Source of the DNA: Rubripirellula sp.
Lineage (GTDB): Bacteria; Planctomycetota; Planctomycetia; Pirellulales; Pirellulaceae
Direction: 5' to 3'
NCBI GenBank assembly: GCA_965216875.1
Contig: OZ244207.1
Location: 7,488,001-7,552,000, forward strand
Length of the DNA stretch: 64,000 bases
Position numbers and translations under genes: made by a program. Below are positions 54,851 to 64,000 of the stretch, piece after piece (position 1 is the first letter of the stretch; each line of letters begins with the position of its first letter). The notes below the pieces were generated by a model that was not told the origin of the DNA, searched no databases, and worked only from the letters and a program-made list of their open reading frames with translations.

Positions 54851-56428
54851 TCAAACTTCGTGAGGCGTACGAAGCGGATTCCACTTGATCTTCCAGCCGA
54901 CGCCTTGGCCATTGAGCTTGGGTTCGGGTAGGTCTTCGAGATCGGCTTCGTCGGTGGACTCTTCGTCACCGGGATCGTTTTCGGGGGCGTCGATTTCGAC
55001 CTTTTGCAGCCGAGTGCGTGGCGGTGTGGTGTCGCTGGCACTTGGGCTCTCAGGTTCGGCCGCGCCCGGTTGAACCAGGATCGACTCACCCGATTCGCTC
55101 GACGTGATCGGAGCCGCTTCGACGGGAACCGAGAACGACGAATAGCCACTTCGAATCGCGGGGCTGAAGGGGTCGTAGTACGACAACGGCGTTCGCTGGA
55201 CGACTTGGCGCGGCACCATGACGGTCTCGGTGTATGGAACCAGCGTCTTGCGAGTCACCGGTCGCATCACTTTACGAGTGACCGCTTCGCGTTCGTAGTA
55301 AGGCACTTGCACCGACTCTTTGCGAGTCTCGTAAACGGTTCGTGTCGATTGCACAGGAACCTTACGAACGACTTCTTCGCTGACCCATTTCTGCTGCTGG
55401 ACGGGGACTTTTCGCGTCAATGTTTCGGTCACAGGTCGTTGAACCGAATAAGGAATCTTGCGAACTTCCACCGTCGGCACCATACGTGTCGTTTGAACGG
55501 GCACGTTTTGCGTGACGACTTCTGATTGCATGCGTTGCACTTGCACAGGCACGCGTTGGGTGACCACTTCAGTTTGCATCCGCTGAACTTGCACAGGCAC
55601 TTGCACCTGGGTCGTTTCAGGGACGTAGGACGTCTGAGCGACTTGTTGCGTGATGTAGTTCGGGCGATACGAGTATTGCGTTTGGACGGTTGCAGGTGTC
55701 GTTTGCGGCGTCCAGTAATAGCCGCCACGGACTCGAGCAAAAATGCCGAGCGGGCCTGGTGTTGCGTGAGTGCCGCGGACGTACTGAAGTCCGTAGTTGG
55801 TTTGGCCTGGAACAACGACTTGTTGAGCGACGTAGCCACCCGCGTCAACCGTTTGGTTTTGCATCGTGGTCACCGGACGCATCGACGTGTGTTGCTGCGT
55901 CTGGTACTGAGTTTCAACAACGGGACGCTGGACCGTGTACTGCTGATCGCGGTACTGGGTTTCGACGACCGGGCGCTGGACCGTGTACTGCTGTTGGTGG
56001 TACTGAGTCTCGGTGACGGGACGATAGGTCGTCACGCGTTCTTCGCGTTCCGCCGTTTCGGTGACGTACTTGGTTTGCGTGTACGTTTCATCACGGTACG
56101 AGGTTTCGGTGACCGGCTTCCAAACGGTGTAGCGTTCTTCGCGGTACTTGGTTTCAACGATCGGCTTGGCAACGCGGTACTCGCGCTCTTCGTTGCGGTA
56201 CTTCAGCACGTTGCGATAGGTGGTGACATCTTCGCTGACGTACTCGGTCTCATACGAGACGCGATAACGCTGAACCTGCTGCGGTTCCATCACCGTTTCG
56301 CATTGCAAGCGATAGGTGGGTTGAAAGCAGCAGCCATCGTCTGCAAAGGCAGCTTGTGGGATGCCCATGGCGATGGTCGAAGCGATAGCAAGAAGCTTGC
56401 AGGATCGGGATTTTGCTGAGCGAATCAT
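54851..56428 (-). CDS. Secreted YTV-repeat protein (planctomycete envelope structural protein candidate)
   Basis: Signal peptide; 16-aa repeats YTVxRPVxET in the N-half and RVPVQ in the C-half. Confidence 0.8.
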   Translation of the reverse strand: MIRSAKSRSCKLLAIASTIAMGIPQAAFADDGCCFQPTYRLQCETVMEPQQVQRYRVSYETEYVSEDVTTYRNVLKYRNEEREYRVAKPIVETKYREERYTVWKPVTETSYRDETYTQTKYVTETAEREERVTTYRPVTETQYHQQQYTVQRPVVETQYRDQQYTVQRPVVETQYQTQQHTSMRPVTTMQNQTVDAGGYVAQQVVVPGQTNYGLQYVRGTHATPGPLGIFARVRGGYYWTPQTTPATVQTQYSYRPNYITQQVAQTSYVPETTQVQVPVQVQRMQTEVVTQRVPVQVQRMQSEVVTQNVPVQTTRMVPTVEVRKIPYSVQRPVTETLTRKVPVQQQKWVSEEVVRKVPVQSTRTVYETRKESVQVPYYEREAVTRKVMRPVTRKTLVPYTETVMVPRQVVQRTPLSYYDPFSPAIRSGYSSFSVPVEAAPITSSESGESILVQPGAAEPESPSASDTTPPRTRLQKVEIDAPENDPGDEESTDEADLEDLPEPKLNGQGVGWKIKWNPLRTPHEV

Positions 56429-56806
56429 ATTGGTTGTCGATTCGTGTGGTTGGAACTCAGTGGGCCGACGGGTGCGAGCGCATGTGCCCCCCGGTGGTCG
56501 TGAAACAACTAATTCAAGGGTACGCAAGCCTTTAAGAAAATGTAGAAAAAACCATGGAAAATAGGCGTATTTGCCAAATCGCCCCTCCTCAAAATTCGCC
56601 AGTTTTCCCGAGCTGTTTATTTGTCGCTACAGATGTTGCTGTTTCGCAACACTCGACAGTTTGGCTAACCGTCAGGGTCGCCCAATTGTCTGACAGCATT
56701 TGCCGTGCGAACCAATGGCCAAGCAAGCACGCAAGACCGTTGATGTTGGCTGTAGCGATTATGAGGCCGGGCGCCCGTCTTGCCGAAGCGACGCTTAGGT
56801 CGACGC

Positions 56807-59620: not shown

Positions 59621-60238
59621 ATGACGCTAAGTGTTGCCAACATCGTTGATGCCACCGAGGCCGAAGGACCAGGCGTACGGTTTGCGATTTGGTTCCAGGG
59701 GTGTCCGTTCCGGTGCCCCGGTTGCTGCAATCCAGAGATGCTGACGTTTCGCGGCGGCACCGAGATGTCGGTCGCCGACGTGGCCCAGCGTATTGGCAAC
59801 GCGCTCGAGAACGAAGCGATTGAAGGGATCACGCTCCTCGGTGGCGAGCCCTTCTCGCATGCACGTGGCGCAAGTCAGCTTGCCGAGATCGCGCAAGTCA
59901 TGGGGCTGTCGGTGATGGTTTTTACCGGCCACGAGTTTTCACAGTTGCAAGCCAACCCAGACGATGACGTTCAGTCGCTGATGGAACACACCGATTTGCT
60001 GGTCGATGGTTTGTACGATCGAGACCAACCCGACACGACACGTCGCTGGATCGGATCAATGAACCAAGAGATCCACTTTTTATCGGGGCGATACAGCCGC
60101 GAAGACGCTTTCTGGAACAAACCTGATACGCTTGAGATTCGGCTACGCGATGGCGAGCTTGCGGTCAATGGTTTTCCAGCGAAGTCGGCGGTCGGTGTTT
60201 GGAAACGCCCACGCAAATCGTCGAAAACTCGGTCGTAG
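59621..60238 (+). CDS. NrdG/activase-like radical SAM protein
   Basis: EGPGVR..WFQGCPFRCPGCCNP (CxxxCxxC), GITLLGGEPF, DLLVDG.Y, GS.NQ. Confidence 0.92.
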   Translation: MTLSVANIVDATEAEGPGVRFAIWFQGCPFRCPGCCNPEMLTFRGGTEMSVADVAQRIGNALENEAIEGITLLGGEPFSHARGASQLAEIAQVMGLSVMVFTGHEFSQLQANPDDDVQSLMEHTDLLVDGLYDRDQPDTTRRWIGSMNQEIHFLSGRYSREDAFWNKPDTLEIRLRDGELAVNGFPAKSAVGVWKRPRKSSKTRS

Positions 60239-60333
60239 CTGCCTTGGCCAGAGGAGTGGAATGGTGTTGGCAAGCCACGCCCAACTTGCTGGCGAGCGTC
60301 GCTCCTGCGTGACCGACAACACAACAATCTAAT

Positions 60334-61371
60334 ATGCGTTCCGTCTCACGTTTCGAATCGAACCTGCTGCGAATCCTGCACTGCATCATGGGGCAGGCTG
60401 AGGTGACGCATGTGTTGCCGATCGTGTCCAAGGGGCAAAACCGTCCCAAGTGTTTGAGCCGCGACTGCGTCGAACTGGTCAAGCAGGCTCTTGGTGCGGG
60501 CACGATCACATTCCTCGCCGCCGAAGATGCCTGGAAGCATGAGCGTTACTTGCGCAACGACCAGATTTCCGAAGGCCGGCTTTGGCAACGCACCGATCCG
60601 TCTGAGCTTGGCCTTGAGTTTTCGGCTGCGTCGCTCGACCTGTTGATGTGGCTGACCGAACAACATGCGCCACAGAGCATGCCGCCTTGGGAATATGAGG
60701 GGCAACTCACGCTTGGCGACGAATTCTTGGTTGCTTTGACCGCGCTTGCGTTTTCCGATACCAAGATGCTGGTCCATTGTTTTCGTGTGGGGCGATTCGC
60801 TCAGGCAACGCTGGCGCCTTTGCTGGTGCCTGGCGGGTACGCCTATTCTCGAGTGACGCCTGAGCCTGACTATTCGTCGTGGGTTTCCGCGCCGGGTTGT
60901 TACGTCATCGAATCGATCCAGAAGCGTTTGGCCGCGCGTTGGACCCGGCTCGAAACCACAAAGCAGCGTTTACTATTGCCGGCAGAAATGCGTGCCGTCG
61001 GACAGGTCCAGGAAAGCGTCCTGACCGCCTGGATGGACGCCTGTGAAAAGGCAAATCGAAGAGATTTGTGCCGTTTTCTTTTCGAAGTTGCGGCGAAAGT
61101 CTACCGCGAGCAGACCACGTCTCGCGACTTCTTTGGCAATCTCGATACCAAAGACATGCGGCTGGCAGAGCGAACCGAAGTCTACCAAGTGGGGTCTGCA
61201 TTGATGCGAGCTGTCGACCGGCTGCGTCGCTGGCAGACTGCCAGTCAATCGGTCGGCTATTTCGACGAAGGCTATGCGGAGTCTCAGCTTCTCAAGTCGC
61301 TGTGGGAATCGGGGGCGATGGATGAAGCTGCGGCTCACGCCAGCCGGGTCAGCAAGGAACTCGATTTTTAG
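60334..61371 (+). CDS. Conserved helical hypothetical protein, probably an FtsH ternary-system component (fvmX6-like)
   Basis: 345-aa co-oriented ORF; VSRFE..LLRIL, GRLWQR, GYFDEGY motifs. Family name recalled, not searched. Confidence 0.6.
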   Translation: MRSVSRFESNLLRILHCIMGQAEVTHVLPIVSKGQNRPKCLSRDCVELVKQALGAGTITFLAAEDAWKHERYLRNDQISEGRLWQRTDPSELGLEFSAASLDLLMWLTEQHAPQSMPPWEYEGQLTLGDEFLVALTALAFSDTKMLVHCFRVGRFAQATLAPLLVPGGYAYSRVTPEPDYSSWVSAPGCYVIESIQKRLAARWTRLETTKQRLLLPAEMRAVGQVQESVLTAWMDACEKANRRDLCRFLFEVAAKVYREQTTSRDFFGNLDTKDMRLAERTEVYQVGSALMRAVDRLRRWQTASQSVGYFDEGYAESQLLKSLWESGAMDEAAAHASRVSKELDF

Positions 61372-61491
61372 ACTCTTCGAATCGCCGGATCGACAGTATG
61401 CCTCCGGTTGTTGTCGAGCTTTTGACGCTTTCACAGCTATCTCCTCTCTGTTGAACATGCGAAAATAGGGCAAGCATTGGAGGACATTTGC

Positions 61492-62061
61492 ATGAGCCGA
61501 GCATATCGAATCAGCGTCAGTGAAACGGTTCGCCGAGTCATTCACGCCGAGGACCACGTCAGCACTCAACTAGAAATCTTGGATGTGTTGCCGTGCGACC
61601 AAATGACCGACCTGTTGGCAGCCGAACTCGAAGGCCTTGGTTTCGAGCGAGACGGTGACGAGATGGTTCGCAAAGATGGCCCGACGACGGTTACCGTCGA
61701 CTTGCCATCGGCAACCGTCACGGTCACCAACGAAGCTGCCAAAGAAGTGAAGGTGTCGGGCAAGAAAACGGGCGTGACCTACGACGACTACGGTCCAAGT
61801 ACAAAAGAGGCCAAGGCAAAGGTCAAAGAGTCGTTGACGAAAGAACTCGAAAGCAACGTCGACGAAAAAGAAGCTGCCCTTCAAAAGAAGATCACCGACG
61901 AACTCGAATCGACACTTTCGGGTTTGCGAAAAGAACTCGATCAAGCAGTCAATCGAGTGACGGCAACCGCGCTGAAACAGAAAGCGGCACAGATTGGCCA
62001 GATCAAAGAGCTAACCGAAGATCCCGAATCGGGTTCACTCACGATTGTCGTCGAAGTGTAA
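61492..62061 (+). CDS. Conserved hypothetical protein with coiled coil, probably an FtsH ternary-system component (fvmX5-like)
   Basis: MSRAYRI.V.E start, coiled coil, C-terminal ALKQKAAQIGQI..SGSLTIVVEV. Family name recalled, not searched. Confidence 0.6.
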   Translation: MSRAYRISVSETVRRVIHAEDHVSTQLEILDVLPCDQMTDLLAAELEGLGFERDGDEMVRKDGPTTVTVDLPSATVTVTNEAAKEVKVSGKKTGVTYDDYGPSTKEAKAKVKESLTKELESNVDEKEAALQKKITDELESTLSGLRKELDQAVNRVTATALKQKAAQIGQIKELTEDPESGSLTIVVEV

Positions 62062-62083
62062 TTCGACCAGTGCCAGACGTCCC

Positions 62084-62180
62084 GTGAGCCGTACGCGCTA
62101 GCGTCGGGCTTTGCACCAGCGACTGGTCTTGCATTGCAGTTCGCATCACGGAGAGCCCGACGCTAGCGCGTTCGGCTCAC
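62084..62180. repeat. REP-like inverted doublet, family A'
   Basis: GTGAGCCGTACGCGCTAGCGTCGGGCT ... AGCCCGACGCTAGCGCGTTCGGCTCAC. Confidence 0.85.
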
Positions 62181-62320
62181 TGCATGCAGACCGCTGCCGT
62201 TTCGTCGTACCGAGCGTTTGCCGGAATCGTCAGGCGATTTGCCCAAAGGCGGCAATGCAAACGTGGAGGCCGCCGCGCAGCTGCCTCCCATACACCTTCT
62301 CACTCGCATAAAATTGCATC

Positions 62321-64000
62321 ATGTCTGTCATCATTCCCGAGTCGGAATTGCCGAAAGAGCTAACGCCTGAGCAGTCGGTCGAAGCGGCCTATGCAGAAAC
62401 GCTTAGCGACGTGGCGTCTGATTTGATCCGCGGTCTTCCTGCGCTTGTCGAATGTGACAAGGACTTGGCGCCGTACGTGTTCATGAATGTTCGCGCGCGG
62501 TTACGTCAAGAAGACTTGCGATGCCTCTATTTGGACGGTCGCCCGCCCGCCGACCAACCACCCGATCCTATGCAGGGCGGGTTGTTGGGCACGATGATTG
62601 GGCAGTTGCGTGATGCCGTTCGAGGCGCGGTGGAACGTCGCGTCGTTGTTTTGCCACACCTGGATCTGCTGACAACAAGCCAGGGTGGTTTGACCGCCGA
62701 AGCACGCGAAGTCATTCCGCTGCTTTACGAAAACCCCGAGTTGGTTTGGTTGGGATTCAAAGACCCTTCCTTTCCGCTTCCCGAAGTGATCGAGAATCTG
62801 TTCCCGCATCGGTACAGTTTGCTGGGGATCCCACGTCCGCGGCTCAAACAGTTGGTCACGCAGAAAGAAGCTCGCAAGTTTGGCAAAGAGTTCAACCCGT
62901 GGAGTCTGTACAAATACGTTTCAGGGATGAACGCAGTTCGGCTGCGCAAATTGTTGTCGACCCTCGAGGGGGAAGACTACCCGAGTGATCCGCGCCGCGC
63001 GTATGCACAGATTCGCCAAGCGACCAGTGGCGGAACACTGGAAGTACCTCGCGTCGACCTGCAAAACGACATTGGTGGCTACTCGAAAGTCAAGAAACGA
63101 CTGTCGTCCGAGATCCTCGAAGTGTTGTCGACGAAAGAGAGTCGAACCGACCCCGAAGAAATCAAGCGACTTGAAGAGTTGATTCCTCGTGGAATGGTTT
63201 TCTGGGGGCCTCCCGGGACGGGCAAGACGATGTTTGCCAAGGCGATCGCGACCGCAATCGGGGCGGCGATCACCGTTGTTTCGGGGCCGGAGCTTAAGAG
63301 TCGTTGGGTCGGCGAAAGTGAAGAACGATTGCGCCAGATCTTTCATCGTGCGCGACAATCCGCTCCTTCGATCATCGTCTTTGACGAACTCGATTCGTTC
63401 GCGGCCGCACGTGGCACTTACACCGGCAGTGGCGTCGAGCACTCGATGGTCAACCAGTTGCTTACCGAGATGGATGGATTCCATAGTGAGGAATTGGTCT
63501 TTGTGGTTGGCACGACGAACTTTGTCGACATCCTCGACCCCGCACTCTTGCGCCCTGGACGCTTTGAGTTCCACCTGCACATTCCCCATCCCGATCGGGA
63601 TGATCGTCGCGCGATTCTGAAAATCTACGACGAGAAGATGAACTTGAACCTCACCGAAGAGGCTCTCGAGTTCGCTGTCCGACGCACGGGAGAGTTTGTC
63701 GAAGGTGCAGCGGCGGGAACGCGATTCTCGGGCGACCATATCAACGCACTCTGTCGCGCGGTCGCACGGAATCGTTTGCGTGACAATGTCGATGGTCCAA
63801 CCGAGGCGAAAGACATCGATCGAGCACTGACCGAATGGGTGGATCGGCCGAAGATGACGCCTGTCGAAGAACGTGTTGTTGCCACACACGAGGCGGGACA
63901 CGCGGTCGTCGCCTTGTTCTGTCCGCACGCACCGCCGATCGATCGAATCTCGATTCGCGCCGACACTGCTGGGGCGCTCGGGTTTGTGCGTCACCAGGAT
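62321..64000 (+). CDS. Soluble FtsH-like AAA+ ATPase / M41 metallopeptidase; 3'-truncated and absent from the ORF track
   Basis: Translated by hand from ATG 62321: Walker A FWGPPGTGKT, pore loop SRWVGESE, Walker B IIVFDELD, SRH TTN..LDPALLRPGRF, then VATHEAGH. No N-terminal TM segment. Confidence 0.92.
   Translation, partial: MSVIIPESELPKELTPEQSVEAAYAETLSDVASDLIRGLPALVECDKDLAPYVFMNVRARLRQEDLRCLYLDGRPPADQPPDPMQGGLLGTMIGQLRDAVRGAVERRVVVLPHLDLLTTSQGGLTAEAREVIPLLYENPELVWLGFKDPSFPLPEVIENLFPHRYSLLGIPRPRLKQLVTQKEARKFGKEFNPWSLYKYVSGMNAVRLRKLLSTLEGEDYPSDPRRAYAQIRQATSGGTLEVPRVDLQNDIGGYSKVKKRLSSEILEVLSTKESRTDPEEIKRLEELIPRGMVFWGPPGTGKTMFAKAIATAIGAAITVVSGPELKSRWVGESEERLRQIFHRARQSAPSIIVFDELDSFAAARGTYTGSGVEHSMVNQLLTEMDGFHSEELVFVVGTTNFVDILDPALLRPGRFEFHLHIPHPDRDDRRAILKIYDEKMNLNLTEEALEFAVRRTGEFVEGAAAGTRFSGDHINALCRAVARNRLRDNVDGPTEAKDIDRALTEWVDRPKMTPVEERVVATHEAGHAVVALFCPHAPPIDRISIRADTAGALGFVRHQD

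Follow-up and report, generated by a model that had tools for sequence, protein, structure and literature searches.

A planctomycete FtsH ternary system and its probable link to an expanded family of TIGR02996 head proteins

The FtsH ternary system is a computational prediction made by Kaur, Burroughs, Iyer and Aravind (eLife 2020), where it appears in the accessible text as vWA-MoxR subsystem 3 (PMC7159879); a literature search on 'FtsH ternary' returned only that 2020 paper and found no experimental test. Here we describe a 64,000-nucleotide stretch of a Rubripirellula sp. genome (contig OZ244207.1, positions 7,488,001 to 7,552,000; the window), at whose 3' end four genes open an operon of this type that continues past the window edge. 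The system is already in print as a prediction, to which the operon adds one more instance; what is new is the link to a partner, the TIGR02996 domain, a helical head of about 45 residues carried by proteins with highly variable bodies. Expansion of these heads was found only in genomes that encode the system. We favour the reading that a soluble unfoldase-protease is fed by F-box-like TIGR02996 adaptors, and put its probability at roughly 0.42. The value of the locus, a compact test case, lies in this link, which supplies candidate clients or adaptors and offers a reason why some genomes hold dozens of copies of the domain and why phages have it as well.

As in the simpler subtype of the described system, the operon encodes a MoxR ATPase with a GxxxTAKS motif, a protein in which a helical N-terminal domain precedes an inactive vWA domain (ivWA), a third component with two AAA domains of which the first is inactive, and a radical SAM enzyme together with fvmX3-analog, fvmX5, fvmX6 and fvmX7 (hereafter X3-analog, X5, X6 and X7). 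The marks of the complex subtype, a beta-propeller vWA with JAB, E1, E2-Ubl, RING and caspase genes, are absent from the open reading frames of the operon, and its vWA protein has the helical N-domain. The locus differs from the description in the accessible text of PMC7159879 in that no fvmRadSAM-pep gene was found here, and the accessible main text of that paper mentions neither 'M41' nor a TIGR02996, WGR or LRR partner. The eight core genes and two head genes are packed in 13.4 kb, and each core gene is single-copy in the host genome, a single contig that is 99% complete. The sequence-only reading had described four co-oriented genes in the window, proposed a profile search of its 345- and roughly 190-residue hypothetical proteins against fvmX5 and fvmX6, and suggested the start of an FtsH ternary system. 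All four genes are present on the plus strand, both hypotheticals matched these Pfam families, MoxR and vWA genes follow past the window edge, and the linkage is conserved in other genomes, so that the assignment is borne out; of the JAB, ubiquitin-like or effector genes it had proposed to look for downstream, no JAB or ubiquitin-like module occurs in the operon, in line with the simpler subtype. Judged by its gene content, the locus is almost certainly a complete FtsH ternary system of the simpler type.

The host genome contains 15 TIGR02996 heads, two of them directly 3' of ivWA (E 2e-18 and 4e-10), and the probability that a head of this genome would fall by chance within 2.5 kb of one or other end of the operon is 0.009. 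The 15 heads are constant and nearly always N-terminal, and the bodies vary, being mostly LRR-like with one WGR fusion; two further body types, assigned by eye, we take to be YwqG-like and L7/L12-like. We then compared genomes with and without X7 above its cut-off (G429 and G646, below it, were scored as negatives). In the family sample of 151 genomes, all 11 positives carry the head (15, 6, 17, at least 43, 9, 1, 5, 4, 3, 11 and 2 matches), ten of them at least twice, as against nine of the 140 negatives, a single one of which has two copies. The class sample of 251 genomes gave the head in 47 of 48 positives, with three or more copies in 43, and in 19 of 203 negatives, none of which exceeds two copies; scored candidates reached 43 per genome in the family sample and 27 in the class sample, the highest values being lower bounds. 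Within family f4, any head copy is found in 43 of 43 positives versus 2 of 11 negatives, and outside f4 three or more copies occur in four of five class-sample positives versus none of 192 negatives. The pattern repeats separately in families f1, f3 and f96, and in a phylum sample of 301 genomes three or more heads were seen only in G000, G105 and G277, all of which have the system. Listed negatives of 9-11 Mb carry 0-2 heads, whereas several positives of 4.4-5.5 Mb carry 4-20. Of 81 loci, five have head genes within the operon or immediately after it, and three different insertion positions are represented; in L111, L129 and L130 head genes flank a core gene. GTDB holds 206 stretches that encode an X7 relative, of which the best 80 were analysed (L100, which repeats the gene content of L009, was not counted separately); the nearest of the named loci are from Pirellulaceae, probably the family of the host as well. 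In two further families inserted into operons, the N-terminal segment resembles the head (hhalign 61%, E 8e-5, and 55%, E 1e-4).

Several observations weigh against this reading. Four systems from outside the class with a divergent X6 (G012, G017, G062 and G079) have no TIGR02996 above noise, L116 showing an X7-X3-analog-protease-X5-X6 cluster, and the core can therefore exist without the head. In G543 the operon is complete but a canonical head is missing, its two inserted genes being weakly head-like (hhalign 9%, obtained for the same family in L030), and G367 and G573 carry one head copy each. The 19 class negatives with heads have one or two orphan copies, and the protease N-domain was found in none of the four such genomes checked. 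No head gene stands in the operon in 76 of the 81 loci, including all those named Gemmataceae. Since 43 of the 48 class positives come from one family, they are not independent; the family and class samples overlap and cover Planctomycetota only. A PADLOC scan of ten proteins gave an AAA domain as its sole match, and co-occurrence cannot separate an adaptor from a substrate. The dependence seems to run in one direction: heads expand only where the system is present, and the system does not always require this head. Taking both sides together, we consider the heads to be probably tied to the system in function.

We propose that the eight proteins would form one cytoplasmic machine, in which the 718-residue protein would act as a ring-shaped unfoldase-protease with X5 and the X3-analog as its cofactors. 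X7 would serve as scaffold, MoxR and the inactive vWA protein would remodel the complex, and the activase-like radical SAM would have one of the machine's own proteins as its target, most simply X6. The head, a constant acidic helical stretch of 45 residues with R22, D27 and W28 among its conserved positions, may dock on one conserved surface of the machine, and the variable body (LRR, WGR or other) would capture a target and deliver it for unfolding and cleavage, and phages that carry the same head on other bodies could block or redirect the machine. A complex prediction of head residues 1-92 with X7 residues 1-405 and X6 scored 0.00 in two runs, which is evidence neither for nor against such docking. 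The F-box substrate receptors of SCF ligases and the viral mimics of the F-box provide an architectural analogy: a helical N-terminal head of some 45 residues on a variable LRR-type body, a long helical scaffold, and viral copies of the head. The two differ in that the operon has no ubiquitin module and its targets would end in a dedicated AAA+/M41 protease, and no homology is claimed. It is tempting to speculate that some planctomycetes possess a ubiquitin-free analogue of SCF, with tens of head receptors serving one eight-protein machine that phage heads jam or redirect, although we hold this full picture to be rather unlikely. If true, it would explain in one stroke what the FtsH ternary system does and what a large, so far unexplained gene family of Gemmata-like bacteria is for. 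The heads also resemble the effector-associated domains (EADs) of PMC7159879 and PMC8195603, which in the accessible text are small, helical and non-enzymatic, present in multiple copies on varied bodies and correlated with a core. However, one EAD copy is fused to a core component and binding is like with like, whereas no core protein here carries a head, and for this reason we did not class TIGR02996 as an EAD. A head-like segment in X6 or any other core protein was searched for and rejected, the best hhalign probability against the eight core profiles being 0.8%.

Viral contigs gave 88 stretches with heads, which reduce to 77 loci and 112 heads; none of these loci exceeds about 20 kb, and prophages may be among them. 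The head motif is identical in host and virus, and an LRR body accompanies 1 of 104 non-redundant viral heads. No core gene was found in the 77 loci apart from one weak AAA match, and none of 28 pattern matches to X7 in viral contigs was confirmed, in a two-pattern scan that can miss copies. We put a role of heads or system in phage conflict at slightly better than even odds. Provided that the functional tie exists, we lean towards TIGR02996 proteins being adaptors and not substrates. The strongest alternative is that the head is a degradation tag, so that the proteins would be substrates held at low levels that accumulate and act as a guard when infection stalls or saturates the machine, with phage heads as decoys. 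The same co-occurrence and phage data would follow, and the nearly invariant N-terminal position of the head agrees with it, as do the intact pore-loop tryptophan and protease site. On the other hand, most host bodies are binding folds of repeat type, inspection of the 15 by eye showed neither a nuclease nor another toxic enzyme, and the LRR profile matches ribonuclease-inhibitor-type repeats. We consider tags unlikely and favour a ranking of adaptors, degradation tags, peptide-effector defence, housekeeping alone and coincidence, in that order.

The protease at the centre of the adaptor reading retains its active sites. Walker A and HExxH are intact in 38 of 38 full-length copies and the Walker B pattern in 37, and residues D355/E356, W329, H523/E524/H527 and D600 are invariant in a 39-row alignment; by comparison with FtsH and Cdc48, we take D600 to be the likely third zinc ligand and W329 a pore-loop residue. 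The protease domain is of the M41 type, as in FtsH, but the TIGR01241 score of 289 bits is below cut-off and the protein differs in having an extra degenerate AAA-like domain and no membrane anchor. The lack of an anchor had already been claimed from the sequence alone and is confirmed by a top 19-residue hydropathy of 1.61, reached in the Walker A helix. Two other FtsH-like matches exist in the host genome. For the active AAA domain the top score, 164.9 bits, is to the second AAA domain of VAT, and the best 60 of 251 rows are all of Cdc48/p97 type. The sole AAA profile match of the protein is at residues 292-422. Residues 1-240 contain no Walker motif, and their assignment as an inactive first domain of AAA fold follows the accessible text of PMC7159879. 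In the model of X7, alpha/beta modules are followed by a disordered linker and an alpha-solenoid of 660 residues, a shape that would suit a scaffold; a fold search returned generic solenoids only and barely tested the N-terminal part. X7 is tandemly duplicated in 22 loci, and in the second copy the N-terminal part is relaxed (within-group identity 0.35-0.36 versus 0.67-0.69) with the solenoid conserved. The X5 profile reached a best E of 0.36 against sequences of solved structures, and the Atlas additionally lists fvmX2 clusters for it at 0.89-0.93; nothing was found there for the X3-analog. Likeness of X5 to DUF1257 (no match to one sequence) and of the X3-analog to DUF2997 (18% with a single sequence, 1.6% with a profile of 41 rows and 0 of 53 members in Pfam) was considered and found no support.

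The radical SAM protein matches only activase models, all below cut-off, the best in NCBIfam being NrdG (TIGR02491, 100 bits versus a cut-off of 126), and its nearest solved structure is pyruvate formate-lyase (PFL) activase (E 2e-8). Like NrdG and PflA it is a small radical SAM protein, with an N-terminal GPGxR segment that aligns to PFL activase, where we presume it to be part of the peptide-binding site, but it differs in falling below every activase cut-off and in lacking an NrdD or Gly_radical partner. The absence of a glycyl-radical enzyme, first claimed for the window, extends to the whole genome (PF13597 and PF01228; controls found in 6 and 3 of 14 genomes, respectively). An orthologue of at least 50% identity is present in exactly the 11 X7-positive genomes of the 151, and the enzyme is kept in 54 of 56 X7-positive genomes at 46-63% identity, which identifies it as a core part. 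X6 shares the locus in 23 of 23 loci that hold the radical SAM gene and may be its substrate. The X6 model is all-helical, with a predicted local distance difference test score of 92; its fold search gave a best Z of 6.4 and no Foldseek match at E 0.001. A 'VGYF' segment of X6 was tried as a glycyl-radical loop and set aside as weak, its glycine being alanine in L063 and L066. Twelve more distant matches to the radical SAM were found, of which six were checked: in five, another AAA+ ATPase stands no more than two genes away (judged for L140 from its resemblance to L139), and the sixth lies close to the end of its contig. Two of these loci also have Hsp70/GrpE-like genes. In L139 (4978-15291) and L140, genes for Hsp70-like, GrpE-like and NrdG-like radical SAM proteins, an AAA ATPase, a kinase, an FGE-sulfatase, DUF1257 and DUF2997 form one run, which is a separate module with a sister radical SAM.

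These data bear on a second alternative, put forward by Kaur et al. and by the sequence-only reading, namely a self-contained, nucleoside triphosphate-gated defence system that would act through a peptide modified by the radical SAM and through effectors encoded next to it, the heads being incidental or one more class of effector. The operon fits the accessible description in PMC7159879, and variable genes are inserted in some operons. However, fvmRadSAM-pep (PF20007) is over cut-off in none of five system-bearing genomes including the host, although that model may belong to another subtype and the peptide of the paper may be the 89-residue X3-analog. The radical SAM is retained as a core part would be, unlike a variable effector, core genes lie megabases apart in the complete genomes G326 and G330, and the GC content of the operon (55.3%) is close to that of the genome (56.3%). 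We regard this model as improbable; of the proposal that the radical SAM modifies a component or a peptide, the peptide half is weakened and the component half is the likelier one.

Among loci with at least 8 kb upstream (n = 40), the radical SAM gene is found in 22, X6 in 28, X5 in 30, the protease in 33 and the X3-analog in 35, and all four window genes in 22, which answers the proposed synteny comparison in favour of conserved linkage; MoxR is present in 21 and ivWA in 11 of the 46 loci with at least 3.5 kb downstream. When four core parts were counted genome-wide in the 56 X7-positive genomes, ivWA was present in all 56, the protease N-domain in 55, the radical SAM in the 54 mentioned above and X6 in 53, and broken synteny is therefore not gene loss: the tested parts of the system are retained jointly even when scattered over the chromosome. 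Such retention of single-copy X6, ivWA and radical SAM genes when unlinked could also be expected of a housekeeping machine for protein quality or cell organisation in some planctomycetes, with no defence role and merely exploited by phages. The presence of the system in 43 of 54 f4 genomes is consistent with this idea, as is the placement of the nearest radical SAM relatives beside other AAA+ ATPases, twice with chaperone-like genes. Elsewhere, however, the system is very patchy (the 11 of 151 genomes of the host's family are spread over 10 genera, with 1 of 61 in f3 and 2 of 60 in f96), and head copy number ranges from 1 to at least 43, so we think housekeeping alone a poor prospect. Least probable of all is that shared ancestry and large genomes produce the co-occurrence with no physical link between head and machine: the dominance of one family among the positives, the rarity of adjacency and the existence of orphan heads would allow it, but the recurrence of the pattern in three families, the genome sizes and the position of the host heads at the operon end speak against it.

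Features of the window and of the operon beyond its edge (L001 position = window position minus 58000; the first five rows are in window coordinates)
Feature	Position	Strand	Support
NrdG/PflA-like small radical SAM, 205 aa	59621..60238	+	Fer4_12 E 2e-33, Radical_SAM; CxxxCxxC at C28/C32/C35
fvmX6, 345 aa, all-helical	60334..61371	+	PF20004 E 6e-67
fvmX5, 189 aa (194 from a TTG)	61492..62061	+	PF20003 E 7e-59
Intergenic palindrome, REP-like dispersed repeat	62084..62180	.	hairpin -69 kcal/mol; blastn matches in 312 distinct 200-bp genome bins
Soluble AAA+/M41 protease, first 560 codons of 718 aa	62321..64000 (whole gene L001:4321-6477)	+	AAA 292-422, Peptidase_M41 512-694
fvmX3-analog, 89 aa	L001:6552-6821	+	PF20002 E 3e-31
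fvmX7, 1138 aa; alpha/beta part, linker, alpha-solenoid	L001:6899-10315	+	PF20005 E 2e-84
MoxR, 338 aa, GxxxTAKS	L001:10334-11350	+	bpMoxR E 5e-60
Helical-N + inactive vWA (ivWA), 490 aa	L001:11434-12906	+	PF19996 E 3e-31, PF19997 E 3e-37, both over cut-off
TIGR02996 head + LRR-like body, 257 aa	L001:12956-13729	+	TIGR02996 match
WGR + TIGR02996 head, 386 aa	L001:13822-14982	+	WGR E 9e-13; TIGR02996 match

The palindrome between X5 and the protease gene is a genome-wide repeat and not specific to the system. In the literature searched, no paper names 'TIGR02996', though the source data of PMC7159879, which lie outside the accessible text, could mention the heads; the searched passages of PMC8567305 contain neither 'TIGR' nor 'FtsH'. 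The readable text and supplements of PMC7159879 name an effector 'NEFF1' once, without definition or sequence. We think it unlikely that the source data already list the TIGR02996 head under this name, and NEFF1 may correspond to one of the families found inserted in these operons. Two paralogous genes of 154-179 residues with no Pfam match, which lie between X6 and X5 in L110 (13629-15050, preceded by a DUF6915 gene) and L030 (5818-6852), are candidates for it. A study by Mahajan et al. 2020, cited in PMC8567305 and reportedly on planctomycete paralogues, may contain the link between head and system as well.

Other genes recur around the system. In 12 of the 81 loci, most of them Gemmata-like, an RtcA gene (RNA 3'-terminal phosphate cyclase; e.g., L072:2856-3923) stands upstream of the radical SAM gene and in its orientation, which may reflect an inherited neighbourhood or a link to RNA repair. 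Four loci have a WD40 gene directly 3' of X7, before MoxR where this is seen (L016:12700-13797, L030:13404-14405, L024:13391-14362 and L027). In five loci (L013, L015, L030, L036 and L051) the system adjoins all or part of a gene cluster, presumably STM4011-4015-like, that encodes radical SAM, HemN-like radical SAM and ATP-grasp proteins, and a second, different radical SAM gene with two uncharacterized genes stands between MoxR and ivWA in L046, L051 and L082. Several f4 genomes have additional genes that encode the protease N-domain by itself (183-260 residues), and also protease-less AAA paralogues (L122-L128), one such protease-N/AAA paralogue adjoining a second MoxR in L128. In the host, a Ser/Thr kinase and a gene resembling extracytoplasmic-function sigma factors form a pair on the minus strand that converges on the operon end (L001:15168-18729), and a 558-residue protein encoded elsewhere in the window (54851-56527, minus strand) consists mostly of imperfect repeats rich in Val, Gln, Thr and Arg.

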